A DNA stretch of 64,000 bases. Source: Candidatus Hydrothermarchaeum profundi (GTDB taxonomy: Archaea > Hydrothermarchaeota > Hydrothermarchaeia > Hydrothermarchaeales > Hydrothermarchaeaceae). This document shows, piece after piece, positions 22,963 through 63,397 of the stretch (positions within the stretch are counted from its first letter, which is position 1; every line of letters begins with the position of its first letter). The stretch is taken from positions 840,989 to 904,988 of the forward strand of contig MTMF02000009.1 of the NCBI GenBank assembly GCA_002011125.2. The letters run 5' to 3'. Position numbers and translations under genes: made by a program. The notes below the pieces were generated by a model. It saw only the letters and a program-made list of their open reading frames with translations, was not told the DNA's origin and made no database searches.

Positions 22963-23448
22963 TCACCCTAGTTTATACCCTATATCTCGCAAGAACTTCT
23001 TTCTAGCTTGAGTGTCTTCCTCCCCTTCAATGCCCTTTGATTTATGCCCATCTATAACCCCTAAAATACCCCGGCCTTGCTCGGTTTCTCCAATGATAAC
23101 TTCCACATCATTTGCAGTAGCACAGTATATTCGGCAGACTTCAGGTACATCCTTTACAGCATTTAGGACATTTATAGGATATGCGTTTTCCAATATTATA
23201 ATAAAACTATGACCTGCAGACAGCGCTAGCGCATTTTTCCCTGCCAGTTTCTCCAATTTTTCATCATTACCTTCCACCCGAACTAAACAGGGTCCTGAGG
23301 ATTCACAAAATGCAAGACCAAACTTTATACCTGGAACAGAGTTAATCAGCACTTCATATAGGTCTTCCACGGTTTTAATAAAGTGGGCTTGCCCGAGAAT
23401 TATATTAGCTTCTTTAGGTTTTTCTATTCTAACGGTTTTTAATTCCAT
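22963..23448 (-). CDS. Adenosine-specific kinase family (DUF355)
   Basis: GQAHFIKTVEDLYE, AFCESSGPCL, YPINVLN, CATAN; start at MELKT. Confidence 0.9.
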   Translation of the reverse strand: MELKTVRIEKPKEANIILGQAHFIKTVEDLYEVLINSVPGIKFGLAFCESSGPCLVRVEGNDEKLEKLAGKNALALSAGHSFIIILENAYPINVLNAVKDVPEVCRIYCATANDVEVIIGETEQGRGILGVIDGHKSKGIEGEEDTQARKKFLRDIGYKLG

Positions 23449-24928
23449 CTCCAGGCACCTTTGTAAGTAGTTTAGCAAATTTTCGTTCTACAGATTGCCT
23501 ATGAATAGTGTTATAGGTGCAGAACGGTATAACTCTCCCATCAGGAACAGCATAGTGTATAACACATCTTTGAATCCTTTCTCTATCAAGGTTATATGGA
23601 TCCATAAAGTGCATGCAACCAATAAATATCGAGTTCTTAAATAATTCTGCCAGAGCTTCCCTTTTCCCCTCTTTCAAAAGATTAGTGACAAGATGTGGGA
23701 TGTTACTTGACTTTGGCATTTGTTTAAGGTCAACTAGCTTTAGAATCTCTTTGGAAAGCTTAGCAAGCGAGGTGATCTTACCTATCTTGCCTTTATTTTT
23801 TATCTCACCTGTGAGTTCGTCTAAGAGTTCGAATAACCCTTCAACGTCTATGAAGCGGGTTATAGGTATAAGCTTACCATCCTCTACAAATACAAATGTA
23901 GCTGCTCCACATGCGGGATGGCAGGTGGGAAATCCTACCGGCTCATTCTTCCAAGCCTCGATGAAGTTAGCTATGGAACCTACGCAAGGTACTGGATAAA
24001 AATCTTCTTTTCTTATTTGACCATCTGTTTGTTCTTCAACTAATTGGAGAAAATCAGGAATGGTTATCCTTTTTTCTTTAAGTTCTCTTTTTGAAATCCT
24101 TCCAGTAAAGGACACCGGTTGAACATTTAGAGATCTAACTACGTCTCTATTTTCAACTACAAACCTAATCATATCACCAATTTGATGGTCGTTAACACCT
24201 CTCACAAGAGTGGGTACAAGGGTTATACTATCGAAGCCTATCTTTCTACAGTTTTCTATGACCTTAAGTTTCTTAGGAAGAGCATTATACCCGCGTGCTT
24301 CTATATAAGGCGCTTCTGTTATGCCATCGAACTGGAGGTATATTGTATTAAGACCTGCGTCCTTGAGTTTCTTTAGGTATTCTATGTCTTCAGCGATTCT
24401 CACTCCATTGGTGGCGACTTGTATTTGTGAGAAGCCCATCTCCTTAGCCATTCTAATTAAGTCTGGTAGGTCCTCCCTCACGGTAGGTTCTCCCCCAGAG
24501 AATTGAATAACAGAGCAGGGCACGGGCTTTTGGTTTCTAAGCACCTCAAACATTTTTTTTATCTGCTCTTTTGAAGGTTCGAAGACATAACCTTGAACAG
24601 CGGCATTAGCAAAGCAAATCGGACATCGCTGATTGCACCTATTTGTTATATCAATATTGCATAAGATTGTAGACGATTTATGCTCAGGACAGATGCCACA
24701 GTCATAGGGACATCCCTCTTCTGTTTTAGTTAGAGGGTTTTTCAGGGGGAATATATAATGGTCGTATTTCATAAAGCGTTTCAAAAGTTTGGAGTCGCTC
24801 CAGTAAACGTCTTCGAATTCTCCATGTTCTGGACATATCTTTCTCATCATTACTTTGCCATTTTCTTCATAGACCTCAGCATCTATTCGACTAAGGCATT
24901 CAGGACACAAAGATACGGTCTTACTCAT
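23429..24928 (-). CDS. tes: Tetraether (GDGT) synthase Tes, radical SAM
   Basis: N-terminal SLCPEC..CPEHG, GCPYDCGICPEH, TNRCNQRCPICFANA, QFSGGEPT, CHPACG, FMDPYN, RCVIHY, IPFC. Confidence 0.92.
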   Translation of the reverse strand: MSKTVSLCPECLSRIDAEVYEENGKVMMRKICPEHGEFEDVYWSDSKLLKRFMKYDHYIFPLKNPLTKTEEGCPYDCGICPEHKSSTILCNIDITNRCNQRCPICFANAAVQGYVFEPSKEQIKKMFEVLRNQKPVPCSVIQFSGGEPTVREDLPDLIRMAKEMGFSQIQVATNGVRIAEDIEYLKKLKDAGLNTIYLQFDGITEAPYIEARGYNALPKKLKVIENCRKIGFDSITLVPTLVRGVNDHQIGDMIRFVVENRDVVRSLNVQPVSFTGRISKRELKEKRITIPDFLQLVEEQTDGQIRKEDFYPVPCVGSIANFIEAWKNEPVGFPTCHPACGAATFVFVEDGKLIPITRFIDVEGLFELLDELTGEIKNKGKIGKITSLAKLSKEILKLVDLKQMPKSSNIPHLVTNLLKEGKREALAELFKNSIFIGCMHFMDPYNLDRERIQRCVIHYAVPDGRVIPFCTYNTIHRQSVERKFAKLLTKVPGDGIKNR

Positions 24929-32902: not shown

Positions 32903-33508
32903 ATGCAGGAGGCTAAAGGAATAAATATAGAGACTGTAGGGAGTTCACTGACGAGAGAGCGAAGGCCCGAAAATGGAGGATCTCCAACTGAGGTCGAGAA
33001 GGTTCTTCAGTGTGTGATCGGAGCCTATGAGTGGGAGAATGGGGAGATACATAGGCTCAGGATAATCTAGAGTCTCTTAAGGAACTACTTATGATAGGAA
33101 AGACAGGCACAGAGAAGAACAGCACTGATCTTACTTTCAGGTTTGTAGGAGAAAAGGGACTCCTCCTTAAGGCATTCAGGTCCTTTACTGAAAAGAGAAG
33201 AAGCTCTATCAGCAGTCGAGGACTTCAAGAAAGTCTTTACGGCAGGCGAGATGGATGTGAAACCTGTCAATTACAAAAAATGTGAGGGCCACGATCCCAG
33301 TGTTGAGAATCTCATAGAGCTGATAGAGATTATAATAATGGACCCGTTCTTAAAGAGTATGATGGCTAGTACTAGGATTAAGCGGATGGAGAAGCTGGGG
33401 GGGACTTGGGGATCTTCTCAGACTCTGGGGATCCCCATGCAGAAGGCATCTTTATACTCAAAGATTAACTCTTGGCAGGGGCGTATTTCAATATATCTCT
33501 TTTACTAA
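32903..33508 (+). pseudogene. Fragmented ORF series (55, 64, 85 aa), probable pseudogene
   Basis: AAGGAGG RBS + ATG at 32903, then short overlapping + strand ORFs interrupted by stops and frameshifts. Confidence 0.4.
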
Positions 33509-33639
33509 AAGTATTTAATATGTTAATATATTGAGATAATTCTGAGGGGATGGACAGCCCAGATAGTACTCCTCTCTCCTCCTTCCCCTCCTCTCCTTCC
33601 TTACTTTTTTTATATATTCATAGAGTTATTTTCTGATAT

Positions 33640-34743
33640 ATGTTTAAAGAAATTCAAGAAGGTAAAACTAGGTTATTGGTTCCAATTAAAGAGTCACCCC
33701 TAGTAGAGAAACCTCCCGTCTTTTATAATCCACGAATGAAACTCAATAGAGATATCTGCTGTTCTGTTGTAAAAGTTCTAATGAAAAAGGAGGATATCAC
33801 CTTCGCTGACTTGTTGGCAGGTACTGGAGCCAAGGGTATTAGAGTTGCTAATGAGACTGGATGTAAGGTGCATCTTAATGATGCAAATACTGAGGCTTAT
33901 CATCTAATTCTAAAAAATGCGAAACTTAATAATTTACGGGTATATATCTCAAATAAAGAAGCTAATTTATTCCTACACGAAAAAGGGAGATTTGAATTTA
34001 TAGACATAGACCCTTTTGGCACGCCGGTTCCTTTCTTAGACGCTGCAGTTATGAGGGTCAAAAGGACCGGATATCTCGGAGTAACGGCGACTGATACAGC
34101 ACCACTTTGTGGGGTGTACCCTAAGACATGTTATCGAAAATATGGGGCGATTCCCATTAGATCAGAGTTTTGCCATGAGATTGGTCTGCGGATATTACTT
34201 GGATATATAGCTAAGACCGCTGCAAAATATGGTAGAGGGATTAATTGTCTTATCAGTCATTCTACTGACCATTACTTTAGGATATACGTGCAGTTATCTG
34301 AAGGAAACACAATAGCAAAAAAAGCCTTGGAAAATTTAGGCTATGTGTATTATTGCAGAAAATGCAAAATCCGGGAGTATGAAAAAGGAGTTTTTCCATC
34401 TTCTAAAAAATGCAACTGTGATAGATCTTACGAAGTAGGCGGTCCGCTTTGGTTAGGAAAAATAAAAGACCAAAAGTTTAGCAGTGCCGTGTTAAAAGAA
34501 TCTGAGTATTTAAACGACAGGAGACTTCATAACCTCCTTACCCTAATTTGTGAGGAAGTAGAAATACCCTTCTACTATGATATCCACAAGCTCTGCAAAT
34601 CTCTTAAAAGAAGTGCACCGCCGATAGACAAGATCATTTCAAAATTGAGAAGTAAAGGATACATAGCTTCTAGGACTCATTTTTCTCCGACGAGCATTAA
34701 AACAGATGCTCCAATTGAGGAATTAAATTTCATCCTCCTCTAA
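33640..34743 (+). CDS. trm1: tRNA (guanine26-N2)-dimethyltransferase
   Basis: PVFYNPRMKLNRD, IDIDPFGTP, VTATD, HEIGLRIL, GPLWLG, SRTHF. Confidence 0.95.
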   Translation: MFKEIQEGKTRLLVPIKESPLVEKPPVFYNPRMKLNRDICCSVVKVLMKKEDITFADLLAGTGAKGIRVANETGCKVHLNDANTEAYHLILKNAKLNNLRVYISNKEANLFLHEKGRFEFIDIDPFGTPVPFLDAAVMRVKRTGYLGVTATDTAPLCGVYPKTCYRKYGAIPIRSEFCHEIGLRILLGYIAKTAAKYGRGINCLISHSTDHYFRIYVQLSEGNTIAKKALENLGYVYYCRKCKIREYEKGVFPSSKKCNCDRSYEVGGPLWLGKIKDQKFSSAVLKESEYLNDRRLHNLLTLICEEVEIPFYYDIHKLCKSLKRSAPPIDKIISKLRSKGYIASRTHFSPTSIKTDAPIEELNFILL

Positions 34744-34857
34744 GCAATACTCGCAGAGCATTTCAACAGGGTCTCCACATTTGTCGCAGAACTCTATACT
34801 GCACTGTGAGCACTTGTATATCGTTGTTTTATCGTTGCATATACCACATTCCTTCAT
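34723..34857 (-). CDS. 44-aa four-CxxC zinc-finger microprotein (not in ORF track)
   Basis: MKECGICNDKTTIYKCSQCSIEFCDKCGDPVEMLCEYCLEEDEI*; ATG 1 nt after rlmE stop; similar ORF at 42630. Confidence 0.85.
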   Translation of the reverse strand: MKECGICNDKTTIYKCSQCSIEFCDKCGDPVEMLCEYCLEEDEI

Positions 34858-34858
34858 G

Positions 34859-35479
34859 CTATCTACCTACTTCTTTTGGATATTTAAATCCTTTTCCAAT
34901 TATGTAGATCTCAGCGCTTTTTCCCCTAGAGGCTTTAGGTTTAGTTCTCTTAGCTAACGTAAAATTGTCTTTTACTTCCTTAAAGAAATCATCTACTTCC
35001 CGCCCTTGGAATATTTTCACTAGAAAGTTTCCTCTATTTCTGAGAACCATAGTTGCAATCTCTAAGGCACTTCTACACAACTCTACCGACCGATAGTGAT
35101 CGATATCCCAAACCCCTGAGATATTGGGTGAGGCATCAGATATCACAGCATCGACATATCCTACTGTATCAATTATTTTCTGTACCGTCTCTTTATTGGT
35201 GAAGTCGCCTTTTAGTGTTATGACATTATCAAATCCAAGTTCTTCTATTTCTTCCAAATCCACTCCTAACACGAAGCCCTCTTTAGCTACCAGCTCTCTA
35301 GTAACTTGCATCCATCCCCCCGGGGCAGCTCCTAAGTCAACGACCTTATAGCCTCTCCTAATTAAATCGAATTTTCTGTTTAACTGCTTCAACTTATAGG
35401 CGGCTCTAGAACGGTATCTCTCTCTTTTTGCCTTTTTATAATAGTATTCGTTTTTCTTATCTTTATACCATCGTGTCAT
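34859..35479 (-). CDS. rlmE: 23S rRNA 2'-O-methyltransferase RlmE/FtsJ
   Basis: YRSRAAYKL, DLGAAPGGW, SDASPN, KPKASR..SAEIY. Confidence 0.96.
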   Translation of the reverse strand: MTRWYKDKKNEYYYKKAKRERYRSRAAYKLKQLNRKFDLIRRGYKVVDLGAAPGGWMQVTRELVAKEGFVLGVDLEEIEELGFDNVITLKGDFTNKETVQKIIDTVGYVDAVISDASPNISGVWDIDHYRSVELCRSALEIATMVLRNRGNFLVKIFQGREVDDFFKEVKDNFTLAKRTKPKASRGKSAEIYIIGKGFKYPKEVGR

Positions 35480-35480
35480 T

Positions 35481-35861
35481 TTATTTCTCCAGCATTATCA
35501 CGAGTTCCTCATTCTCAAGCCGTTTCTCTACTATCCTATATTCTTTTGGTATCGCAAAGAGCTTGAAGTATACTTTATCCCCTTTTTTGGCTCTAACTTC
35601 CAGTGAGTTCTCAAGTCTCTTAATATCAACATCTCTTAGGGATACTTCAGGTATTTTTACCCACACCACTATAGAGTGATTTTTTCTAAGGATTTTAGAA
35701 TGCGGCTCTACAACCTCCTTATGACCGATTCTTTTAGCTTTCCTCTTGTTTATCTCCTCTTCTAACTTAAATCTGACTTCGTCAAAAAAACTCTTAAAAA
35801 TGAAAAAAAGCAGTATCAACCCCAAAATCAATGGGATCAATCTTAGGAGAAACATGACCAT
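35481..35861 (-). CDS. Membrane-anchored Hsp20/alpha-crystallin-like protein
   Basis: N-terminal TM, then VKIPEVSLRDVDIKRLENSLEVRAKKGDKVYFK..ENEELVI (Hsp20/GvpH-like). Confidence 0.6.
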   Translation of the reverse strand: MVMFLLRLIPLILGLILLFFIFKSFFDEVRFKLEEEINKRKAKRIGHKEVVEPHSKILRKNHSIVVWVKIPEVSLRDVDIKRLENSLEVRAKKGDKVYFKLFAIPKEYRIVEKRLENEELVIMLEK

Positions 35862-38491
35862 CAGGATTTCCCCTTCAACTCTTTTAATATCTCTTCAAGT
35901 TTAGTTAACTCTTCTCCATATTTTGCCCAGTTACCCTCCCGCAAGTATTCCTTGGCTTTATCGTAATGTGTTAGCGCCTCACTTATCAGTTCTTCTACGG
36001 TCTTTTCCCCCATCTTTTTGACTACAACTTTCTTAGGCGCTTTGCCAAAAATAACTTCTAATGATTCCTCGAGGGTTTCCTGCATTGTTAGCCTATCCCC
36101 GTAAGCTACTATAACTCTCTTTAACTCTGGAAGCGAGCCTTCTTGTTCAGCTCTCAAATATATCGGTTCGACATAAAGCAATGATTTTTTCACCGGTATC
36201 ACAAGAAGATTACCTCTCAAAACCCTAGAACCTGCTTGGCTCCAAAGGGTGAATCTTTGTGATATTTCAGCATCTTGATCTATTCTTGCTTCTATTTGAA
36301 TAGGACCATATACGAGCTTACCTTTGGGGAAAATATAAACAATCTTGTGGCCGTAGTTAGGCACATCTCCCCTAGCCGCTAGCCAAGCTATCATATTGTT
36401 TTTTCCTCTCGGCGTGAAGGGTGTAAGTATTATAAATTCTTCTTTTTCCTCCCCTGGTAGTTTCGTTATAAGATAATACGGCTCTAATTTGATCCTGTTT
36501 CCCTCATATATCTCTTCAGGAATATCCCATGCGTCCTCTCTATTGTAGAAAACTCTAGGATCTTTCATATGGTAGACAGCATATTTCTCTGCCTGTATTT
36601 TGAATAAATCTTCAGGATACCTTATATGCATCTTGGGATCCTTCGGCATTTCAGAAAATGGCTTGAAAAGCTTTGGGAATATGTTCATGTAGGTGCTTAT
36701 AATAGGATCTTCTTCAACAACATAGAAATCTGTGTCTCCATTATATGCGTCTATAGTAATTTTTACTGTGTTTCTGATGTAATTATATCCTCCAGTAGGC
36801 TCAGAGTAGGGGTATCTATTTGTAACGGTATATGCATCTAGCATCCAATATAATCTCCCATCGGAAGACACAACTAGGTAGGGGTCGCTGTCATAAACTA
36901 AAAATGGAGCTATAGCGTTAACTCTTTCCATTATGTTTCTATTGAAAATGATCCTACTCTCACTTGTTACGGAGTTACTTACGAGAATCCTGAGTGTGTT
37001 GAATCTAAATGCCATAGCCATTTTTCTAATGTAAGATGAGAGTGGAATTCCTCCTGTGCCTTGATAGGTTGTATAGACTCCAAGATCTCCTCTGGGATAG
37101 TCGAATTCTTCGGTCGTCGTTTTAACTATCACATAATCTTTCACAATTTCTCCGTAGTATATTTCCGGCCTTGTGATATTGAAGTAGGGAGATACTGGAG
37201 GTATATCTTTAATATAAAAAATTGGCAATCCTTCACTAGAAACCTCTCTCACAGGGCTCATCGCAAGTCCATATCCGTGAGTGAAAGTAAGTCTTTCTTT
37301 AACCCACGACCTCTCTTGGAGAAGTTCTGGGTTAATCTCCCTCGCTGAAAGCATAACTTGTTTGTAGTCTCCGTTAATGTAATATCTATCAACGTCTACA
37401 TCGTTGAACTCGTAGTAAGTTCGTATCAACTGGACCTGCCGATAGGTTCTCATGAGAGGACGCCAGTCCCACAATCGTATATTATCTATTATCTGAGAAT
37501 TATTTGCAATATCCTCGTATGTGAGATCTAAAGCGGCTGGAAATTCGATCTCTTCGATGTCGGTAAGACCGTATGCATATCTTGTCGCATCAATATTGTA
37601 CTTCAGATACTCTTTCTCGAGATTAAACTCATCGGGTGAGACCTCATATTGTTGAACTATCCCCGCGATACTATTACCTATTATCCCAACCACAATTAAG
37701 AGGGCTATTCCAGCAGCCGGGATTTTAATGTTCCTAACTCTCATGGTTGCGAAGAAGGCCAGAGCCACAAATAGAGAAAGGATCGCTGTGAAGGTTATAA
37801 GAGGGAGCTGGACTTTTATATCTGTATAACCGGCACCATAAACTGCGCCTCTAGTTGAATAGAGTATGGAATACCTATCCAGTACATATCCGATGGATAT
37901 CAGGAGGAATATTATGCCAACCAATAAATATAGATGGTTTAATGCGGATTTTTCGAGCTTCGGATATTCTATTCCGTACCTTCCATATTCGTCTTTCACA
38001 ATAGCGCCGCTAAATAGCATATAAAAACCAAAAGACATTAGGGCAACTATACCTATCCCAAAAAGGAGGATGTTTTTAATGTAAAAATAAAAGGGAAGGG
38101 TGAAAACATAGAAACTTATATCTTTATTGAAAATAGGGTCTGCGATATTAAAGGGGACTTGGTTTTTGTACTTTAAAACCGTCTCCCATCCTACGGTGGA
38201 GACAAGTCCCATGAAAATAGCGAAAATTAGAATAACGGTTAAAGTTATAGGGGTAAAGCCTGCGCCTTCTCCTAATGAGGCTTTCATCGCCCATTTCACA
38301 TTTATATAGGCTAATACGAAAAATAAGACGCCCCATATAATGGCGAGAGTTACTTTAGTTTCTAAAATAGTTAAGAAAACGCTTAGATACCCCACTTCTG
38401 TAAACCACAAGTAGTCTACGTAGAATCCTATTAATGCCGGTATGAATAGAAAGGAAGCTACTATTAGGCCTATGATGAGTTTGAAGTTCAT
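35861..38491 (-). CDS. UPF0182 family membrane protein
   Basis: DYLWFTEVGY, DPIFNKDISFYVF, GAGYTD, NIRLWD, DVDRY, FTHGYG, YIRNTVK, GNLLVIP. Confidence 0.95.
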   Translation of the reverse strand: MNFKLIIGLIVASFLFIPALIGFYVDYLWFTEVGYLSVFLTILETKVTLAIIWGVLFFVLAYINVKWAMKASLGEGAGFTPITLTVILIFAIFMGLVSTVGWETVLKYKNQVPFNIADPIFNKDISFYVFTLPFYFYIKNILLFGIGIVALMSFGFYMLFSGAIVKDEYGRYGIEYPKLEKSALNHLYLLVGIIFLLISIGYVLDRYSILYSTRGAVYGAGYTDIKVQLPLITFTAILSLFVALAFFATMRVRNIKIPAAGIALLIVVGIIGNSIAGIVQQYEVSPDEFNLEKEYLKYNIDATRYAYGLTDIEEIEFPAALDLTYEDIANNSQIIDNIRLWDWRPLMRTYRQVQLIRTYYEFNDVDVDRYYINGDYKQVMLSAREINPELLQERSWVKERLTFTHGYGLAMSPVREVSSEGLPIFYIKDIPPVSPYFNITRPEIYYGEIVKDYVIVKTTTEEFDYPRGDLGVYTTYQGTGGIPLSSYIRKMAMAFRFNTLRILVSNSVTSESRIIFNRNIMERVNAIAPFLVYDSDPYLVVSSDGRLYWMLDAYTVTNRYPYSEPTGGYNYIRNTVKITIDAYNGDTDFYVVEEDPIISTYMNIFPKLFKPFSEMPKDPKMHIRYPEDLFKIQAEKYAVYHMKDPRVFYNREDAWDIPEEIYEGNRIKLEPYYLITKLPGEEKEEFIILTPFTPRGKNNMIAWLAARGDVPNYGHKIVYIFPKGKLVYGPIQIEARIDQDAEISQRFTLWSQAGSRVLRGNLLVIPVKKSLLYVEPIYLRAEQEGSLPELKRVIVAYGDRLTMQETLEESLEVIFGKAPKKVVVKKMGEKTVEELISEALTHYDKAKEYLREGNWAKYGEELTKLEEILKELKGKS

Positions 38492-38591
38492 GGAATTAAT
38501 GTAAAATTTATAGTATATATGGATTTAGGATGCAATATGTAAAGACAACCCATATTTGAAATGACACTACAATAAAATTTTTATACGATAA

Positions 38592-38615
38592 TTTAGTAAC
38601 TTTTTGTAGAAAAAA
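38592..38615. promoter_or_regulatory. Phr-type heat-shock repressor operator (candidate)
   Basis: TTTAGTAACTTTTTGTAGAAAAAA vs Thermococcales consensus TTTAnnnACnnnnnGTnAnnAAAA (one mismatch); just downstream of a TTTTTATA box at about 38578-38585. Confidence 0.55.
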
Positions 38616-38894
38616 GGTGGGCACTAGAACTTTCGTGATGTTGCAAATCTAGGTCTGCGACATCTAACATGATGTTGATAGGCCTTCTTTGAAGTAGCTA
38701 AAAAATTCTGGAGGTACTTTCATGAAGGTTCTGGTGAATGGTCGGGGTAAAAATTTAAAGCAGGGTATAGTAGGGGTCTTGTATCAAGTACTACCTCTAA
38801 TTAATCAGGGAAGACTATCGAAGTATAATTACCAGAGTTATTCTGTGCTGACTCTTACTTTTAATACTTAAATAATAAGTAGGAGGTGAAGGCG

Positions 38895-39998
38895 TTGGGA
38901 AAGGTAAAAGTAGCTATAGCTGGCGTGGGCAATTGTGCCTCATCTTTAGTGCAAGGTGTGGAATACTATAAAGACGCAGACCCAGAGGACTTTATACCCG
39001 GGCTTATGCACGTAAATTTTGGGGGATACCACATTTCTGATATAGAATTCGTTGCAGCCTTTGATGTAAATGCAAATAAAGTAGGAAAAGATTTAAGCGA
39101 AGCTATCTTTACTGAACCCAACTGCACCACAAAGTTTTCAGAAGTTCCCTATTTAGGAGTAGAAGTTCAAAAAGCTCCAGTAATGGATGGAATAGGTAAA
39201 TACCTGAGGGGGGTCGTTCCTATAGACAAGCATCAAGAGCCAGTGGATGTGGTGGAAGTCTTAGAAGATGCTGGAGCTGATATATTAGTAAATTATCTAC
39301 CGGTAGGAAGCGCTAAATCAACACAATTCTATGCACAGGCAGCCATAGATGCCGGATGTGGTTTTGTAAACTGTATACCAGAATTTATAGCCTCCGACCA
39401 AAAGTGGGCGGACATGTTCGATAAGGCAGGGCTCCCTGTTGCAGGCGATGACATAAAGAGTCAGGTCGGTGCAACGATATTACACAGAACATTGATTCAG
39501 TTGCTGAAGGATAGGGGAGTTAAGGTCAAGAAGACTTATCAGCTTAATATCGGAGGAAATACCGATTTCCAGAATATGCTACAAGAGTCCCGGCTGAAAT
39601 CAAAGAGAATATCCAAAACAGAGGCAGTGACCTCTATCTTAGACTACGATTTTCCAACAAGGATAGGTCCAAGCGATTATGTACCTTTCTTGAATGATAA
39701 TAAACAGGCCTTTATACATGTAGAGGGGGAGAAGTTTGGTGGTGTGCCGTTAACTATCGATCTACGGCTGTCAGTAGAAGACTCTCCAAACAGCGCTGGG
39801 GTATCTGTGGATGCGATAAGAGCAGTAAAGATAGCGTTGGATAATGGCGTATCAGGACCATTGGAGGGCGTTTCAGCATATTTCTTCAAGCATCCACCGG
39901 TCCAGTATCCAGATAGGATAGCGAGACAAATGGTCGAAGAATTTATAGAGAAATACAGTGTTTCTCCAAAAGTTGCTCCAGAGATTGAAGTTCCCTGA
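38895..39998 (+). CDS. ino1: myo-inositol-1-phosphate synthase
   Basis: GVGNCASSLVQG, NYLPVGS, GDDIKSQVGAT, GGNTDF, DSPNSAG; TTG start after AGGAGGTGA. Confidence 0.96.
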   Translation: MGKVKVAIAGVGNCASSLVQGVEYYKDADPEDFIPGLMHVNFGGYHISDIEFVAAFDVNANKVGKDLSEAIFTEPNCTTKFSEVPYLGVEVQKAPVMDGIGKYLRGVVPIDKHQEPVDVVEVLEDAGADILVNYLPVGSAKSTQFYAQAAIDAGCGFVNCIPEFIASDQKWADMFDKAGLPVAGDDIKSQVGATILHRTLIQLLKDRGVKVKKTYQLNIGGNTDFQNMLQESRLKSKRISKTEAVTSILDYDFPTRIGPSDYVPFLNDNKQAFIHVEGEKFGGVPLTIDLRLSVEDSPNSAGVSVDAIRAVKIALDNGVSGPLEGVSAYFFKHPPVQYPDRIARQMVEEFIEKYSVSPKVAPEIEVP

Positions 39999-40008
39999 GT
40001 TGAATAAA

Positions 40009-41301
40009 ATGGGGGGTTTAAAAATTAAGGCGGTCATACTGGCTGCCGGGAAAGGCGAGAGGTTCGGGGATAGTTTGCCTAAGCCTCTCGCGAAACTCTT
40101 TGAAAAGCCATTGATAGAGTATATAATAGAGAGCTTAGAAAAAGTTGGTATTTCCGAGATAATTGTTGTATACCATGATGAAAGAGTTCGAGATTTTGTG
40201 CGGAGCAGATGTAAAACCGTCTACAACCCGCATGTTGAAAGAGGAGAAGGTTATTCTCTCTTACTAGGTGCAAAAGCATCTGGAGGCGGTCCATTTCTAC
40301 TTTTAATGTCAGATCATTTTTTTGATAGAGAAATTCTTAGTAGACTCTTAAATTCTAACACAAAAAGCACTACTCTCTGTATTGACAAGGATATCTATGA
40401 TAAAGACTTGGATGAAGCAACTAAAGTTCTAGTGGAAGGCTCTAAAATAATAAGTATAGGAAAAAATATAAAGAAATTTAATGCTATAGACACAGGGATT
40501 TTTCTCTGCACTAATGAAGTAACCGAGATCGCTGGGGAGTTTGAGGGTAAGTTTACTGTGACCGATGTAATGAGTAAACTATCTCAAAAGGGAAAACTAT
40601 TGGCATGCGATGTAACAGGATTCTTTTGGCGTGATATAGATACAAAAGAGGAACTCATAAAAGTAGAGAATTTTATTTTAAAATCGTTGGTGAAACCTTC
40701 TGATGGCATTATTTCGAGGCATATTAACAGGAAGCTTTCTATACCTCTTTCAAGATTGCTCGTAAAGACTAGGATAACTCCGAATCAAATGACTTTTGTT
40801 TCATTCTTTTTCGGCATCCTATCCGCAGTTCTCTTTGGGTTGAATAAAAATATATATGCCGGTATATTCGCACAGATTACCTCAATATTAGATGGATGCG
40901 ATGGCGAAATAGCGAGAATAAAGGGCACGGAATCAAAGTTTGGAGCATATTTTGATTCTATCACAGATAGATACGCGGATATCGCTATTATCCTTGGCAT
41001 GATTGCCACAGCACCTGACAAGCTCTGGCTTATAGGAAGCCTAGCTCTTTTGGGTACTTACTCTATAAGCTATAGCGTTTCAAGGATGGAGACTTTAGCA
41101 AACAAGAGGTTTATTGGCGGTATAGCGGGATTTATGACGCGAGATGTTAGACTCTTTATAATAATGATAGGGGGCCTCTTTAACCAAATATTTCTGACTC
41201 TCTTAATTCTCGCAATTTTCACGAATTTCGTAGTGTTATCAAGGATACTTAGTGCTAGAAAGGTGATGGAACATGTCTCGCTTACTAAGCAAGGCATGTA
41301 G
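40009..41301 (+). CDS. Bifunctional inositol-1-P cytidylyltransferase / di-myo-inositol-phosphate-phosphate synthase (IPCT/DIPPS)
   Basis: N-terminal LAAGKGERF..PKPL NTP transferase, MSDH; C-terminal DGIISRHINRKLS, TPNQMT, DGCDGEIAR..GAYFDSITD; follows ino1. Confidence 0.92.
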   Translation: MGGLKIKAVILAAGKGERFGDSLPKPLAKLFEKPLIEYIIESLEKVGISEIIVVYHDERVRDFVRSRCKTVYNPHVERGEGYSLLLGAKASGGGPFLLLMSDHFFDREILSRLLNSNTKSTTLCIDKDIYDKDLDEATKVLVEGSKIISIGKNIKKFNAIDTGIFLCTNEVTEIAGEFEGKFTVTDVMSKLSQKGKLLACDVTGFFWRDIDTKEELIKVENFILKSLVKPSDGIISRHINRKLSIPLSRLLVKTRITPNQMTFVSFFFGILSAVLFGLNKNIYAGIFAQITSILDGCDGEIARIKGTESKFGAYFDSITDRYADIAIILGMIATAPDKLWLIGSLALLGTYSISYSVSRMETLANKRFIGGIAGFMTRDVRLFIIMIGGLFNQIFLTLLILAIFTNFVVLSRILSARKVMEHVSLTKQGM

Positions 41302-42652
41302 GCATTTTTTAAACCATGTAGTTGCGGGATACCTTGGATCAGATAATGGTTCTTCTTTGGGAAAGCTATATTCTCTACCTGTGAAAGAGTTAGAGGAATT
41401 TGTAAGAAGAAGAATGAGGGTAAGTAAGGAGGAGGTAGAGGGGATTCTGGAGAACCCTGCCTATAGGAGGGCTCTGTTTATCGCTGCTAAAAGTGTCGCT
41501 GAATATGGTGTAACAAAACCACAAAAGCTTATTTCTCCCTTTTTGGTTGTATGGAACTTTACCAACCGGTGTAACCTCAAATGTAAACATTGCTATCAAT
41601 CCGCTGGCAAAGCATTAGATAACGAGCTAAGTTTAGAAGAAAAACTTGATACTGTGCATCAACTTGCTTCAGCAAACTTACCCTATTTAGCGCTCTCGGG
41701 AGGTGAACCACTTTTATCCGAGGATATATTCCCTGTAGCTAAAGAGGCTTCCTCTCTAGGTATTTATACTTCGATCGCTACAAATGGCACATTGTTAACC
41801 AAAAAAATAGTGAAGAGGCTAAAGGTATCCGGGATTTCTTATATACAAGTTAGTGTAGATGGAGCTTTTCCTGAGCTTCATGACTCCTTTCGCGGGGTAG
41901 AGGGATGTTGGAAAAGAACTATTAAAGGTATAAAAAATGCTGTTGAAGAAGGTCTTACTGTTTCAATAGCTACTACTATAACCACTTACAACTATCACCA
42001 TTTTGATGAAATACTTCAATTAGCTAAAAAGTTAAAGGTTAACAAGTTAACTATATACAATTTTATTCCGACAGGTAGAGGGAGGGATATAGTGAAAAAC
42101 GACCTTAGTCCACAGATGAGGGAAACTATACTGAAAAAAGCTCAAAAAGAACTTTCCAATGGTTTTGATGTACTAACAACGGCTCCACAGTTTTCTAGAG
42201 TATGTATTGAAGCTGGCGGAGGAACGGTTGGGGTAGCACATTTTGGCAGAATAGGAAATGACAAAGGAAATAACAAGGCAGAATTTATTGCGGATTTCTT
42301 AGGAGGATGTGGTGCGGGAAGGACTTATTGTGCTATCCAGCCAAATGGAAAAGTTACTCCCTGTGTTTTCATTCCTCTTGAAGCAGGAGACTTGAGGAAA
42401 GAGAAATTTATATCTATTTGGAGGAATTCTCCATTACTAAATCTCTTAAGAGACAGAGAGGACTTGAAAGGCCATTGCGGGAAATGTAGATTTAGGGCCT
42501 CATGTGGCGGATGTCGGGCTAGGGCATTAAGTTACTTTAATGACCTTAAAGCTCCAGATGCTGGTTGTATATTTAATCTTCATGCGTGGGAAGCCTTAAA
42601 TAAATTTGAATTCCTAGGGGAGGTAGAAAGTGCCCATATGTCATGTATGTAA
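41273..42652 (+). CDS. Radical SAM/SPASM protein (candidate GMGT synthase Gms-like)
   Basis: VWNFTNRCNLKCKHCY, SGGEP, GCGAGRTYC..TPC, CGKCRFRASCGGCRARA..DAGC; the Gms assignment is from recalled similarity only. Confidence 0.85.
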   Translation: MSRLLSKACRHFLNHVVAGYLGSDNGSSLGKLYSLPVKELEEFVRRRMRVSKEEVEGILENPAYRRALFIAAKSVAEYGVTKPQKLISPFLVVWNFTNRCNLKCKHCYQSAGKALDNELSLEEKLDTVHQLASANLPYLALSGGEPLLSEDIFPVAKEASSLGIYTSIATNGTLLTKKIVKRLKVSGISYIQVSVDGAFPELHDSFRGVEGCWKRTIKGIKNAVEEGLTVSIATTITTYNYHHFDEILQLAKKLKVNKLTIYNFIPTGRGRDIVKNDLSPQMRETILKKAQKELSNGFDVLTTAPQFSRVCIEAGGGTVGVAHFGRIGNDKGNNKAEFIADFLGGCGAGRTYCAIQPNGKVTPCVFIPLEAGDLRKEKFISIWRNSPLLNLLRDREDLKGHCGKCRFRASCGGCRARALSYFNDLKAPDAGCIFNLHAWEALNKFEFLGEVESAHMSCM

Positions 42653-42770
42653 AAAAGAATCAGAAGTGCTCTATACATGTATGAGTTGTGGGATGCCTTA
42701 CTGTACAGACTGCGGGGACATTGACGAGCAAATATGTGACGAGTGCTTAGCTGAGTGGCAACCAGAGTAA
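42630..42770 (+). CDS. 46-aa four-CxxC zinc-finger microprotein (not in ORF track)
   Basis: GGGGAGGT RBS, GTG start: MPICHVCKKESEVLYTCMSCGMPYCTDCGDIDEQICDECLAEWQPE*. Confidence 0.85.
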   Translation: MPICHVCKKESEVLYTCMSCGMPYCTDCGDIDEQICDECLAEWQPE

Positions 42771-42778
42771 TCTTGATA

Positions 42779-43312
42779 TCACACAAATCTTCTTGTTTCC
42801 AGCTCTGTTATAACTTTCACAGGATTTTTCAGGATACTTCCTACTGGAGAGGTTTTTACAACTGCTTCATTTAGTTCTTTAAGTTTTTCTTTACTTAGCG
42901 GCTCTTTCGTTTTCAAAAAAACTCTTGCTCGAACTTCTGTAAATCCAGGCCAAACTTTTTCTGGGGGTTCTAGTCCAAGGAAGCCTGGGAGATCTATGTT
43001 GCCTTCTAATTCTATTTCAACTTTAGCTAATTCTATTCCTCTTACTGCGGCATTCATAACGTACCCCACTATGAGGCAACAGCCATAAGCACCCAAAACC
43101 ATCTCCACCATATTTGGAGCCGTATTAGTTCCCCCTAAGTCTTCAGGTTCATCCATATTAACGACAAAGTCTCTTATTCTTGCTTCGCATTTAAATCCGC
43201 TCTTCCACTTTGTATTAGCTCTCCAGATTGTTTTTCCTAAATCTGGATTTTCTTTAACTAACTCTACAACTTTCTTGAGGTGATCTACATCTACACCGTT
43301 TACTATTTTCAT
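42779..43312 (-). CDS. OsmC family protein
   Basis: VNGVDV, DEPEDLGGTNTAPN, GAYGCC, AAVRGI, TSPV. Confidence 0.88.
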   Translation of the reverse strand: MKIVNGVDVDHLKKVVELVKENPDLGKTIWRANTKWKSGFKCEARIRDFVVNMDEPEDLGGTNTAPNMVEMVLGAYGCCLIVGYVMNAAVRGIELAKVEIELEGNIDLPGFLGLEPPEKVWPGFTEVRARVFLKTKEPLSKEKLKELNEAVVKTSPVGSILKNPVKVITELETRRFV

Positions 43313-43398
43313 AAAAACACAAAGAGAGTTACTTATGTTTAATACTTTTTATTTCAAAAAAGAAACTTTCAAGATAGTTTTTTGACATAGTGGAATGA

Positions 43399-43953
43399 TT
43401 GAAAATGAATAGGAATGCAATATATACAAAATACTCTAGTATACTTCAGGGCCACCTCGACGTAAACTCCAAAATACTGGAACTTGAAGGCGCCATAGCC
43501 AACCCTAAGGAACTGACCCACCCAGCAGAAATTTTGAAGAAAAATTTTATAATTTATGTATCAACCGATGTATCTTCCCAGCTCAAGGAAGTAAAGGAGC
43601 ATAAAAAAATTGATTGCGTCGTAGTAGATAGCAGAATTTTACCTTTCAAGAATAAAACTTTTGACCTTGTTCATGTTACTTTCCCTGCAAGGGTCCCAGA
43701 ATTCAGGTATAAAGGCAAAACTATTAACCCTACCTTCTCGGGTAGGGGTATACCTAAAAGTGCTGCTGAGATTCAAAGAGTATTAAAAGAGGATGGCTTA
43801 TTAGTTATATTTCCATTTTTTAAATATAAGGACGATCTAGATGAATTTTGGCAAAATAGAATTAGTAAGACGTTCATTAGTATGGGTTTTAAGATGGATG
43901 AAAAAGAAGTGTATCCCCAACATTCAGCTGCTATTTTCACAGTAGTAAGATAA
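43399..43953 (+). CDS. Putative class I SAM methyltransferase-like protein
   Basis: LPFKNKTFDLV and EIQRVLKEDG motifs; glycine-rich motif I degenerate. Confidence 0.55.
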   Translation: MKMNRNAIYTKYSSILQGHLDVNSKILELEGAIANPKELTHPAEILKKNFIIYVSTDVSSQLKEVKEHKKIDCVVVDSRILPFKNKTFDLVHVTFPARVPEFRYKGKTINPTFSGRGIPKSAAEIQRVLKEDGLLVIFPFFKYKDDLDEFWQNRISKTFISMGFKMDEKEVYPQHSAAIFTVVR

Positions 43954-43971
43954 TGAGGTAATAATGAATAG

Positions 43972-44046
43972 TGGGGCCGCTGAGATTTGAACTCAGGTCC
44001 ATGGCTCCCGAAGCCACGAGGATAGACCAAACTACCCTACGGCCCC
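43972..44046 (-). tRNA. tRNA-Pro(CGG)
   Basis: Minus strand GGGGCCG..CGGCCCCA acceptor, anticodon arm GTGGC-TTCGGGA-GCCAT, T arm CTGAG-TTCAAAT-CTCAG. Confidence 0.95.
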
Positions 44047-44167
44047 TTTTTTTAATGAATATCTGGTACTTGGTCTTTAAATTTTTTCTATTACGACTAT
44101 AGACGAATTTTAATTAGATTTATGCCGAAAAACATATATATCTGAGATTAAAAGAAGGCAATGAAAG

Positions 44168-44881
44168 GTGGCATTAGTGACTCTTGAGGAAGAATTTTCC
44201 AAAATGATCGCAGGTGAAATCGTGTTGTCAGCAAATCCGAGCAACACACTAAGAAAATGGAGAGAAACTTTCGGTCTTTCTAAGACGGATTTAGCAAAGC
44301 GCATAGGAATTTCACCTTCAGTTATATGCGACTACGAGAAAGGGAGGCGGAAATCTCCTGGAACCAAGATTATTAAAAAAATCATATCTGCATTATTGGA
44401 GAGCGACATTGAGAGGGGTAGACCAGTCCTAAAGAGTTATGAAAGGTGTATAGGAGTAACTCGAGGAGGAGCTATACTTGATATTAAGGAATTCTCAATG
44501 CCACTCAAAGCTAGAGATATATGCGATATAGCTAGAGGCAAGGTTCTAGTCAATAAAGATCAGCTAGGAAAAGAGCTATATGGGTATACAGTATTAGACA
44601 GCCTTAAAGCTATACTTGAGATGTCTTCCGATGAGTTTTTAAAGGTGTATGGCCTTACTTCGGAGAGAGCGCTTATATTCACGAAAGTTGCTAGCGGGAG
44701 GTCCCCCTTTGTCGCAATTAGAGTTACTAGTATAAAACCTGGGCTAGTGATTTTGCATGGATTGAAAGATGTTGACTCTTTAGGATTGGAAATAGCATTA
44801 AAAGAAAAGATTCCAGTAGCTATTTCCGAGATTGATGACGTTCAAGTGTTAATAGAGGAGTTGAGGAGAAACACTTCATGA
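44168..44881 (+). CDS. XRE HTH transcriptional regulator (archaeal, typically upstream of HMG-CoA synthase)
   Basis: [40 protein letters not shown]. Confidence 0.9.
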
Positions 44882-62831: not shown

Positions 62832-63397
62832 ATCTGTTTCATTGAGTATATCATTCTATGAAATGTTGTAATAAATCCCAGCAGAGCTAGGAAAGCTAAG
62901 AGGTAGTAAATTTCTCCTATAAGCACTCCTATTATTATTGCCAGTATTCTGAAGTCTCGGGTTGCTAGGCCTACTTTACATTCAGCATCTACAGCTTCAG
63001 CCATTATCCTAGATACACTAACCAAGAAAGTTCCAACGATGGCGAGAGTACCCACCAGCCAGTATTTAAATGGATTAAGCGCTATTAAGGCGATTATCAG
63101 TCCTGCGTCTACAAATCGGTCTAATACTCTATCCAGATATGCGCCTTTTTTAGTCACCTTACCCGTCAACCTCGCTAAATCACCATCTGCGCAGTCCAGT
63201 ATTTGAGAGAATAGCAATACAACTACCCCGGCTATCGCATTATTTTTGGAAAGTAAATATGCTGCATAAAAGCCCGAAAATGTAGCAATCCATGTTACAT
63301 AGTTAGGGGAGATACCCGTAGGTATTAGCAGCCTAGCGAGAGGTATGGAAAATCTCCTGTAAACATAATTTGTTAAAGGATACTTCAGCTCTATCAT
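62828..63397 (-). CDS. CDP-alcohol phosphatidyltransferase family protein
   Basis: SPNYVT, DCADGDLAR...GAYLDRVLD signature. Confidence 0.92.
   Translation of the reverse strand: MIELKYPLTNYVYRRFSIPLARLLIPTGISPNYVTWIATFSGFYAAYLLSKNNAIAGVVVLLFSQILDCADGDLARLTGKVTKKGAYLDRVLDRFVDAGLIIALIALNPFKYWLVGTLAIVGTFLVSVSRIMAEAVDAECKVGLATRDFRILAIIIGVLIGEIYYLLAFLALLGFITTFHRMIYSMKQM

Follow-up and report, generated by a model that had tools for sequence, protein, structure and literature searches.

Trm112 is a small zinc-knuckle activator of several methyltransferases and contains four cysteines, while the zf-HIT and AN1 domains are protein-binding modules that act in RNP assembly or in stress and proteasome pathways. 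True FYVE domains possess basic PI3P-binding motifs. Among the Archaea, the Haloferax volcanii micro-protein HVO_2753 has four CxxC-type motifs and binds one zinc. Mutants of H. volcanii that lack zinc-finger micro-proteins are reported to show phenotypes in stress adaptation. A 2026 preprint reports a link between UPF0182 and membrane-protein quality control of the FtsH/YccA type, and a small TM membrane protein as its partner.

Here we describe a locus of Candidatus Hydrothermarchaeum profundi, an uncultured archaeon from hot vents, in which a UPF0182-family protein is encoded close to two cysteine-rich microproteins, termed ZnF_L and ZnF_R. The stretch of DNA analysed, referred to as the window, is 64,000 nucleotides long.

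Organisation of the locus

The initial annotation described two tightly spaced gene strings, each terminating in a four-CxxC ORF of 44 or 46 aa, and the ORF list and Pfam searches confirm this in full. Eight ORFs form divergent minus and plus strings, and are listed here with the intergenic region and the flanking genes:

33640..34743, plus strand: Trm1, tRNA m2,2G methyltransferase (Pfam TRM, 403 bits)
34723..34857, minus strand: ZnF_L, 44 aa, eight Cys (4xCxxC), acidic tail EEDEI (ORF)
34859..35479, minus strand: RlmE/FtsJ-type 2'-O-methyltransferase (Pfam FtsJ, 190 bits)
35481..35861, minus strand: TM protein, 126 aa; a TM helix at the N terminus is followed by a truncated alpha-crystallin (Hsp20-like) domain (ACD)
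35861..38491, minus strand: large membrane protein of the UPF0182 family, which opens the left string (Pfam UPF0182, 925 bits)
38492..38885, no strand: divergent intergenic region, 394 bp (sequence)
38886..39998, plus strand: Ino1, myo-inositol-1-phosphate synthase (Pfam Inos-1-P_synth, 125 bits)
39958..41301, plus strand: bifunctional IPCT/DIPPS (Pfam NTP_transf_3 and CDP-OH_P_transf)
41273..42652, plus strand: radical SAM/SPASM enzyme (Pfam Radical_SAM and SPASM)
42630..42770, plus strand: ZnF_R, 46 aa, eight Cys, paralogue of ZnF_L (ORF)
42779..43312, minus strand: OsmC-like protein (Pfam OsmC, 60 bits)

The gene for the 126-aa TM protein overlaps UPF0182 by 1 nt and is separated by 1 nt from rlmE, which in turn lies upstream of ZnF_L with a gap of 1 nt. 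The trm1 gene, which was not mentioned in the initial annotation, converges on ZnF_L and the 3' ends overlap by 21 nt. On the right, IPCT/DIPPS combines a CTP:inositol-1-phosphate cytidylyltransferase and a di-myo-inositol-phosphate-phosphate synthase in one fusion protein. The last 23 nt of the radical SAM gene are shared with ZnF_R, and the OsmC-like gene, convergent on ZnF_R, forms the right boundary of the plus string. An assembly error at the divergent junction can be dismissed, because an independent metagenome run yielded a 4045-nt contig that spans 36085-40129 with zero differences from the window.

The initial annotation interpreted the whole 8-kb region as one co-regulated thermal-stress module for membrane, ribosome and compatible solute, with the microproteins as shared regulators or adaptors. 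Both strings would then be driven from the intergenic region between them, and a microprotein would close each operon. We regard this as improbable. [quoted passage not shown] However, the upstream regions of 12 candidate stress genes revealed no common palindromic operator, a Phr-type operator pattern gave no match, and the locus lacks the ArsR-type regulator found at the head of the DIP operon in relatives, a homologue being located on contig C19. The intergenic region itself contains TATA-like stretches rich in AT and a 49-codon upstream ORF (38722-38871) that has a GGAGGT motif of its own. A long hairpin is predicted at approximately 38622-38737 (RNA fold of 38600-38895, -78.9 kcal/mol, z -2.89); the region has no match in Rfam, and it yielded no conserved operator.

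The microprotein family

ZnF_L and ZnF_R align over 42 residues with 15 identities (36%, E 4e-8) and have all eight cysteines in common, which upholds the earlier proposal that the two arms end in paralogous microproteins. A search of the entire 2,186,281-bp assembly in all six frames detected exactly two copies of the 4xCxxC scaffold, these being ZnF_L and ZnF_R. Purifying selection acts on the microproteins, and they are real genes, since orthologues of ZnF_L have pN/pS values of 0.04-0.45 in 8/8 comparable pairs; in ZnF_R, the Shine-Dalgarno motif GGGGAGGT is situated 5 nt ahead of the GTG start.

Phylogenetic analysis separated 22 sequences linked to RlmE or Trm1 (the ZnF_L clade) from seven others with support of 96/98. 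The latter group includes ZnF_R, which clusters with the DIPPS-linked fingers of genomes G012 and G020 and with other non-L copies. The position of the two microproteins in different, well-supported clades shows that the duplication is old, and they are ancient paralogues, each with its own older neighbourhood; this argues against their having been shared elements of a single module. An origin as recent copies was rejected on the same clade support. An observation that favours a single module is the proximity of the only two copies, 7.9 kb apart in a 2.19-Mb genome, for which we calculate a chance of about 0.7% under random placement; pure accident thus leaves a residue unexplained.

An AlphaFold2 model of ZnF_L (pLDDT 92) places the microproteins in a FYVE/RIM-like fold class (Z 6.0-4.5 in structure comparison), although structural Z values below 8 may reflect merely a common small-finger arrangement. 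Neither ZnF_L nor ZnF_R reaches any Pfam zinc-finger cut-off; a multi-repeat relative (P0047) passes that for FYVE (30.6 bits, cut-off 27.8). At E<=1e-3 the finger family comprises 451 representative clusters, mostly of 40-100 aa with acidic tails, and all its named members are labelled 'hypothetical protein'. Judged from the model, the members of this large, unnamed archaeal family are predicted to be cross-brace fingers of the FYVE/RIM-like type, with eight Cys, two zinc ions and a short acidic tail.

Gene neighbourhoods in related genomes

Synteny was compared over approximately 40 Hydrothermarchaeales relatives, and the locus resolves into three blocks, each with a separate synteny of its own. 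UPF0182 is present in 25/41 genomes searched, and in eight genomes from three families it is directly followed by a gene for a TM-anchored ACD protein. The 126-aa protein in the window has no Pfam match and scores well under the cut-off of the NCBIfam archaeal Hsp20 model (E 8.2e-6, 25.5 bits against 140); profile-profile comparison of its C-terminal domain with four canonical Hsp20s (hhalign 96.4%, E 1.4e-9, 78 columns) nevertheless identifies it as a sequence homolog of these proteins. UPF0182 and the membrane-anchored, truncated ACD protein, which form the first block, are probably a membrane-protein quality-control pair. The suggestion that the locus might hint at the role of UPF0182 is strengthened by this conserved gene order, and independently by the 2026 preprint.

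The second block, in which rlmE and ZnF_L are read towards trm1, is found across the order and is joined to the first only in the family to which the window belongs. It is an RNA-modification cluster. Trm1 is the most conserved neighbour of ZnF_L-type genes, being adjacent and convergent in 18/22 genomes; RlmE is encoded directly upstream in 8/22, and 2/22 have neither. No stress genes surround this cluster in relatives from other families, which counts against a single thermal-stress module.

It is possible, but rather unlikely, that the microproteins serve the cell in some general way that has nothing to do with the adjacent genes and merely hitch-hike at operon ends, for example as AN1/FYVE-like adaptors for proteostasis machinery or as acidic decoys for basic proteins. 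According to this view the adjacency to Trm1 is frozen, and it could have been retained simply through the overlapping 3' ends, which extend over 4-41 nt in several genomes. The upstream genes vary by lineage (RlmE, DIPPS, radical SAM, glutamine amidotransferase, epimerases, PLP enzyme and phosphoribosyltransferase), as do the C-terminal extensions (acidic, basic or membrane-spanning), and two other phyla mostly have one match per genome (in 69/151 and 83/201 genomes). On the other hand, co-directional RlmE-ZnF pairs with gaps of 1-75 nt are kept in four families, and a finger follows DIPPS in two; both patterns look like operon partners and argue against a general role.

The third block is the DIP operon. 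Ino1 is 76-82% identical to relatives and matches TIGR03450 with 491 bits (cut-off 638), and an alternative TTG start is located at 38895 behind GGAGGTGA. IPCT/DIPPS matches NF041135 with 318 bits (equivalog cut-off 580) and is matched over its full length in 21 relatives, with one match truncated by the end of a contig. An ArsR-type HTH protein heads the ino1-IPCT/DIPPS pair in 7/13 loci examined, and in two genera the pair is flanked by thermosome or Hsp20 genes, the order being thermosome...ArsR-HTH-ino1-DIPPS-ZnF-Hsp20 in G020 (Hsp20 PF00011, E 2.8e-21) and thermosome-Zn-ribbon-ACD-HTH-ino1-DIPPS in G010. The heat-stress character proposed for the locus therefore stands for the right arm and fails for the RlmE-ZnF-Trm1 cluster. 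In many relatives the operon has its own ArsR-type regulator and lies amid thermosome, Hsp20 and tetraether-synthase-like genes; in the window, the upstream regulator was probably lost and the radical SAM enzyme and second finger gained. A finger is found directly behind DIPPS only in G000 (the genome containing the window), G012 and G020, which represent two genera in two families.

The radical SAM/SPASM enzyme belongs to the NirJ/AhbD-like group, carries an N-terminal extension of about 90 aa, and has its best NCBIfam scores against NirJ2 (264 bits), AhbD (258) and TIGR04053 (246), all below the respective cut-offs. Orthologues occur in seven other genomes and none adjoins DIPPS. Since ZnF_R overlaps the 3' end of this gene, we considered whether the fingers might be rubredoxin-like iron or redox proteins, with ZnF_R as electron donor to the adjacent enzyme, by analogy with Dph3/Kti11, which donates electrons to Dph1-Dph2. 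The CxxCG knuckles and weak rubredoxin matches in a PDB sequence search (E 0.016-0.2) are in keeping with this, and in G038/G041 the orthologous radical SAM gene has a related finger gene on its own strand, about 1.2 kb upstream; in G038, however, a TetR gene and a phosphoribosyltransferase gene separate the two. The DIPPS-linked fingers of G012 and G020 have no radical SAM neighbour, 7/7 other radical SAM orthologues lack a directly adjacent finger, no redox enzyme is encoded beside ZnF_L, and in superposition the model matches two-metal cross-brace fingers and not rubredoxin. A redox function is thus very improbable.

The two arms are unlinked in relatives, an outcome that the initial annotation itself named as one that would refute its single module: UPF0182 adjoins ino1/DIPPS in 0/11 relatives that have both genes, and adjoins rlmE in 2/19, both in the window's own family. 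We therefore lean, with moderate confidence, towards a lineage-specific juxtaposition of independently conserved blocks, in which the fingers would be adaptors of neighbouring enzymes. On this reading the mirror-image layout reflects chance in the local gene order and does not mark a conserved stress module. Our best guess, by analogy, is that each finger is a small accessory subunit or adaptor that binds proteins and works with an enzyme encoded beside it, whereby ZnF_L would serve RlmE and/or Trm1 in a Trm112-like manner, and ZnF_R would serve IPCT/DIPPS or surrounding stress proteins. A single fixed partner is argued against by the unrelated genes that the family follows outside the order: a PLP-dependent enzyme in 4/5 Bathyarchaeota loci and, in the phylum of G038, a PyrE-like phosphoribosyltransferase. 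The finger is fused to a membrane domain in the phylum to which G039 belongs, which likewise argues against one fixed partner. Within the order, copies of the ZnF_R clade also follow a glutamine amidotransferase (G020, contig C39) or sugar epimerases (G011, contig C47).

Comparison with known systems

The closest structural match to the ZnF_L model is the RIM zinc finger 2cjs_C (Z 6.0, rmsd 2.1 A over 43 residues, 37% identity), with FYVE domains at Z 4.5-5.2. The FYVE, RIM and rabphilin fingers are eukaryotic eight-Cys, two-zinc cross-braces with four CxxC pairs, as here, and the predicted fold superposes on 42-44 of the 44 residues. In contrast to these, the window's fingers are stand-alone archaeal proteins of 44-46 aa, which are acidic and lack the basic motifs of true FYVE domains.

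Among Pfam families the best similarities are to zf-HIT (PF04438; 19.0 and 23.6 bits) and AN1 (PF01428; 17 bits), under the gathering cut-offs of 24.7 and 27.9. By our reading the spacing of the first six ligands agrees, whereas the last pair is CxxC in the window's fingers and contains His in zf-HIT and AN1; structural Z values are 2.4 for the Bcd1 HIT and 3.1 for the Cuz1 AN1 domain. The C(P)XCG micro-proteins of H. volcanii, such as HVO_2753 (PDB 6ydh, DUF1610), are likewise archaeal and under 70 aa, but their spacing differs, the acidic tail is a feature of the window's proteins, and no sequence relationship to HVO_2753 was detectable in a PDB sequence search (6ydh, E 0.21, partial).

ZnF_L, like Trm112 small and rich in Cys, is encoded next to genes for SAM-dependent RNA methyltransferases, and Trm112 serves as a working analogy for its relation to RlmE and Trm1, although ZnF_L has twice as many cysteines (eight against four) and the Pfam search gave no Trm112 (PF03966) match at E<=0.01. 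Actinobacterial UPF0182 (MSMEG1959) belongs to the same Pfam family as the protein in the window. Neither FtsH nor BI-1/YccA was found in the window's genome, so that the actinobacterial model is not transferable as it stands. The TM-ACD protein may nevertheless take a role like that of the small TM partner described in the preprint; unlike its actinobacterial counterpart, this candidate partner bears an alpha-crystallin domain.

Anatomy of the locus

The initial annotation described two tightly coupled gene strings that diverge from a shared spacer and each end in a paralogous microprotein with four CxxC motifs. The list of open reading frames reproduces this anatomy exactly, Pfam confirms every large gene, and a convergent trm1 gene, absent from that account, overlaps the last gene of the left string.

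Genes of the divergent locus, in window coordinates, with sources
33640-34743 (+): Trm1, convergent with the ZnF_L gene, 21-nt overlap
34723-34857 (-): ZnF_L, four-CxxC microprotein of 44 aa, 1-nt gap to rlmE (ORF list)
34859-35479 (-): RlmE, 1-nt gap to the gene for the 126-aa protein (ORF list, Pfam)
35481-35861 (-): TM-ACD, 126-aa protein, 1-nt overlap with the UPF0182 gene (ORF list)
35861-38491 (-): UPF0182 protein (ORF list, Pfam)
38886-39998 (+): Ino1 (ORF list, Pfam)
39958-41301 (+): IPCT/DIPPS, of di-myo-inositol phosphate (DIP) synthesis (ORF list, Pfam)
41273-42652 (+): radical SAM/SPASM protein (ORF list, Pfam)
42630-42770 (+): ZnF_R, paralogous microprotein of 46 aa (ORF list)

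The kinship of the two microproteins is borne out by all eight cysteines being held in common and by 15 identities in 42 residues (E 4e-8). When the entire assembly (2.19 Mb in 19 contigs, 97.65% complete) was scanned in all six frames, the four-CxxC scaffold turned up at these two places only, 7.9 kb apart, a distance with a chance of about 0.7% under random placement, although this figure is post hoc. A strong Shine-Dalgarno motif precedes the ZnF_R gene, and orthologues of ZnF_L give pN/pS values of 0.04-0.45 in all eight pairs of equal length, two pairs of unequal length having been left out. A contig assembled from another, independent metagenome spans the divergent junction without any difference.

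Conservation of the two arms

It had also been proposed that both arms form one co-regulated thermal-stress module in which the microproteins serve as shared regulators or adaptors. Our comparison drew on 37 same-class genomes and three more distant ones; the genome of the window (G000) is the sole member of its genus, and its three family-mates are 62-82% complete. Adjacency of UPF0182 and DIPPS was observed in none of the 11 relatives that possess UPF0182 together with a bifunctional DIPPS, and in one genome (G032) the two genes share a strand but are separated by 10 kb. The striking mirror-image layout of this one genome is conserved in no relative examined, which calls for caution. The region is a composite in which three units meet: UPF0182 paired with the ACD gene, the rlmE-ZnF-trm1 cluster, and a DIP operon that has here acquired a radical SAM gene as well as another finger, of ancient divergence from the first. 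What survives of the stress interpretation is its general flavour, as the right arm and the UPF0182-ACD pair have real proteostasis and heat-shock associations in relatives, and the clue to UPF0182; the conserved mirror module and the shared regulators are not supported.

UPF0182 and its membrane-anchored partner

The match to UPF0182 (PF03699) is full-length (925 bits, covering positions 3-770 of the 770 in the profile), and the family was found in 25 of the 41 genomes searched. Full-length orthologues of the 126-aa protein are encoded directly downstream of UPF0182 in genomes from three families (G000, G006, G014, G026, G028, G031, G032 and G033). This protein has an N-terminal transmembrane helix and a C-terminal domain that escapes every Pfam model. 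It gives no PF00011 row at E<=1, short of the Pfam cut-off for Hsp20, and scores 25.5 bits against the NCBIfam Hsp20 model NF041800, below the cut-off of 140. Comparison by hhalign of 17 rows of the family with four PF00011-positive Hsp20s reveals homology to bona fide alpha-crystallin domains (ACDs; probability 96.4%, E 1.4e-9, 78 columns), with the long ACD loop of about 16 residues missing from the 126-aa family. ACD paralogues of 170-220 aa carry an N-terminal zinc ribbon in place of the transmembrane helix. Paralogues give weak ArsA_HSP20, CS and PIH1_CS rows.

The junction of rlmE with UPF0182 is found in only two of the 19 relatives with both genes (G001 and G002); these belong to the family of the window and are without the ACD gene. 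It is not readable in G003, where rlmE ends its contig. Searches with tblastn at 80 UPF0182 loci of other phyla placed RlmE, Ino1, ZnF or TM-ACD beside UPF0182 at none of them, and one weak match to the TM-ACD HMM lies 3 kb from UPF0182 at locus L001.

A preprint ties UPF0182 in Actinobacteria to membrane-protein quality control of the FtsH/YccA type, with a small transmembrane partner. Neither FtsH nor BI-1 was found in G000. The conserved membrane-anchored alpha-crystallin partner in archaea without FtsH provides a second, independent genomic clue to UPF0182 and fits the proposal that this family acts in membrane-protein homeostasis.

The rlmE-ZnF-trm1 cluster

Profile searches recovered the finger in 26 of the 41 genomes, with a further copy, missed by the profile, added by eye (G002). 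Of the 22 genes that make up the ZnF_L clade, 18 have Trm1 next to them in convergent orientation, eight lie downstream of a co-directional RlmE gene (gaps of 1-75 nt), and two adjoin neither (G005 and G036). In broken clusters the finger keeps Trm1 in most families and RlmE in one (G012 and G020). Overlapping 3' ends alone may make the pairing of Trm1 with the finger hard to break. The Trm1 of G001, a genome 78% complete, appears as two overlapping tblastn pieces (L087 / L118:1803-2468) and may be frameshifted or mis-assembled.

The DIP operon and its neighbours

The IPCT/DIPPS protein contains PF12804 at residues 25-135 and PF01066 at 273-420, with ino1 directly upstream, and so has the make-up of the bifunctional enzyme; it scores 318 bits against the NCBIfam equivalog NF041135, a Thermococcales-specific model with a cut-off of 580. 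Full-length bifunctional enzymes are encoded in 21 relatives, including G027, where the copy is cut at a contig end. A gene for an ArsR-type winged-helix protein stands directly ahead of ino1 at seven of 13 annotated loci (G010, G012, G015, G020, G026, G028 and G032). For example, the order is thermosome > Zn-ribbon-ACD > HTH > ino1 > DIPPS in G010, thermosome .. HTH > ino1 > DIPPS > ZnF > Hsp20 in G020, and HTH > ino1 > DIPPS > ZnF > PAS kinase in G012, and one genus has a tetraether-synthase-like radical SAM enzyme with a PF23545 zinc ribbon after DIPPS. In Pyrococcus the DIP pathway is documented to be heat-induced and repressed by Phr. The Hydrothermarchaeales operon, often with an ArsR-type regulator among thermosome, Hsp20 and tetraether-synthase-like genes, constitutes a concrete regulon to test.

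This regulator is absent from the DIP locus of G000, which encodes a 33%-identical homologue on a 2.8-kb contig (C19; L263). There a Cdc48/VAT AAA+ fragment (33-1133, +) converges on the ArsR-type HTH gene (1166-1687, -), an arrangement reminiscent of archaeal heat-shock regulator loci. In other phyla, where 609 DIPPS relatives were found, no finger lies within 4 kb on either side of DIPPS at any of 80 loci; the best finger HMM match (E 0.0094) covers a mere 20 positions and falls within DIPPS itself, at L233.

The radical SAM enzyme of the right arm is NirJ/AhbD-like (NirJ2 264 bits, AhbD 258 bits, TIGR04053 246 bits) and scores below every equivalog cut-off (500 bits or more for AhbD and NirJ, 395 for TIGR04053). 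None of its seven orthologues elsewhere is next to DIPPS; those of one genus come after Hsp20 and a tetraether-synthase-like enzyme. At L318 and L319 (G004 and G021) the string reads Hsp20 (PF00011), tetraether-synthase-like radical SAM enzyme, SPASM orthologue of the window type, and this shared string with Hsp20 suggests that the two radical SAM enzymes act together in a heat-related, perhaps lipid, pathway.

Further genes of related type occur in the window. About 10 kb to the left of the locus (23429-24928, -) lies the gene for a 499-aa radical SAM protein that is 46% identical to the zinc-ribbon (PF23545) tetraether-synthase-like enzyme found right after DIPPS in a different genus of the order. 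A stand-alone CDP-alcohol phosphatidyltransferase (62828-63397, -) and a divergently encoded nucleotidyltransferase that runs off the window (63556-63999, +) each resemble one half of IPCT/DIPPS at 35-37% identity. They may be a synthase pair for archaetidylinositol phosphate, or else belong to a second, split inositol pathway. In G028 a single frame of 791 aa (L148:5131-7506, a greedy ORF call) spans the positions of ino1 and IPCT/DIPPS; the IPCT and DIPPS domains that Pfam detects lie from residue 370 onward, the 370 residues ahead of them give no Ino1 match, and a gene fusion is a bare possibility.

The ino1 leader

The leader of ino1 (38622-38871, +) contains a 49-codon ORF (38722-38871) with its own ribosome-binding GGAGGT motif, and the start of this ORF is buried in a long predicted hairpin (38622-38737). 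The fold energy is -78.9 kcal/mol (z -2.89), with none of 200 shuffles folding as well. The element may encode a leader peptide or work as a thermosensing RNA. A Phr-type palindrome, in a pattern search of low sensitivity, has no match in the window against 0.21 expected. A simple screen for gapped palindromes with 5-nt arms, also of low sensitivity, was run upstream of three Hsp20, four thermosome and two Zn-ribbon-ACD genes, the HTH gene of C19, ino1 and UPF0182, and yielded none occurring in more than two regions, leaving aside the spacer that ino1 and UPF0182 share. The only Rfam row over 33000-44500 was a sub-threshold tmRNA match that coincides with tRNA-Pro (CGG; 43971-44046, -).

The finger family

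In a maximum-likelihood tree of 29 fingers, the 22 whose genes are linked to RlmE or Trm1 stand apart from the remaining seven, and this split has 96/98 support; the tree has 45 columns, is coarse and resolves nothing finer. The seven comprise ZnF_R, the G012 and G020 copies that are linked to DIPPS, two with basic tails and two from other contexts. On this coarse tree the split excludes a recent tandem duplication as the origin of ZnF_L and ZnF_R, and points to an old duplication in which the nearness of the G000 copies reflects no fresh tandem event.

Searched with the finger profile, a set of 1.84 billion representatives returned 451 clusters (50% identity) at E<=1e-3. The members are mostly 40-100 aa in length; the finger is N-terminal and the acidic tail behind it varies greatly in length, some members are tandem repeats, and they are named only as hypothetical proteins. 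ZnF_L is absent from the ESM Atlas, where a homologue (P0025) leads only to archaeal clusters of hypothetical proteins, and a related-locus search with P0025 found no relative. Neither ZnF_L nor ZnF_R passes any Pfam zinc-finger cut-off, the closest being zf-HIT (PF04438; 19.0 and 23.6 bits, gathering cut-off 24.7). Neither gives a FYVE row (PF01363) at E<=0.01, and only a distant multi-repeat relative (P0047) passes the FYVE cut-off.

The AlphaFold2 model of the finger, built from 27 sequences, has a pLDDT of 92. Foldseek gave no match at E<=0.001, its best rows being RIM, PHD, FYVE and AN1 fingers, and the top hit of an exhaustive structural aligner was the zinc finger of RIM, at Z 6.0 and 2.1 A for 43 residues. 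FYVE domains came next (Z 4.5-5.2, with 42-44 residues superposed at an rmsd of 1.5-2.7 A), although a Z below 8 can reflect a generic small-finger arrangement. On the basis of this model we read the microproteins as putative two-zinc cross-brace fingers of the FYVE/RIM type.

Other architectures and neighbours are found beyond the order. In the phylum of G038 (69 of 151 genomes, mostly single-copy) the finger has a basic tail or is fused to a PyrE-like phosphoribosyltransferase; at L154, L177, L316 and L317 it is fused to, or directly upstream of, such an enzyme, and in G038 and G041 the string continues with TetR, an orthologue of the SPASM radical SAM enzyme and a B12-radical SAM enzyme. 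In the phylum of G039 (83 of 201 genomes, mostly single-copy) the finger is joined to a C-terminal membrane domain; at L286-L311 it forms the N-terminus of proteins of 120-170 aa that end in a two-helix membrane domain with a GPIPI-like motif, an unnamed family. In Bathyarchaeota an acidic-tailed member follows a PLP-dependent enzyme at four of five loci.

Possible function and comparison with known fingers

Microproteins of this kind are often skipped by gene callers, and a widespread archaeal family is now defined, whose putative two-zinc cross-brace fold comes from a model of high pLDDT and whose gene partners recur across one order. We infer that each finger binds, as a small accessory subunit, an enzyme whose gene adjoins its own. 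The diversity of finger neighbours outside the Hydrothermarchaeales weakens this reading and leaves some weight with a less likely rival, that the fingers have a general role and merely hitch-hike beside neighbouring genes.

A wider scheme can also be drawn, which we regard as improbable. The acidic-tailed, eight-cysteine fingers would be a new family of FYVE-like micro-subunits in archaea, docking onto particular enzymes, and the ZnF_R lineage would have been recruited to the DIP pathway and its heat-shock neighbourhood. ZnF_R would there act as a sensor or adaptor, binding an inositol-phosphate ligand or IPCT/DIPPS and tuning solute synthesis in thermal stress, while UPF0182, together with its membrane-anchored ACD partner, would make up an archaeal unit for membrane-protein quality control that works independently of FtsH. 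The nearness of the only two finger copies, and the 49-codon ORF within a stable leader hairpin, remain odd. What is new here lies in the finger family, which has no name, and in the pairing of UPF0182 with the ACD protein, each a version of something known; the literature we searched on inositol in Hydrothermarchaeota and on FYVE in archaea yielded no description of the finger family.

Among solved structures none is convincingly related to ZnF by sequence, the top rows being spurious C2H2 repeats. The HVO_2753/DUF1610 microproteins differ in showing no detectable homology (6ydh_A, E 0.21 over 19 profile positions). FYVE domains possess basic phosphoinositide-binding motifs around the third cysteine. 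In contrast, the archaeal fingers lack the basic lipid-binding motif, show x-Y-x-C-x-x-C-G-x-x-F-C with no conserved basic run, and have acidic tails. If the scheme were true, the link between ZnF_R and inositol phosphate would represent a prokaryotic forerunner of the FYVE-inositide connection.
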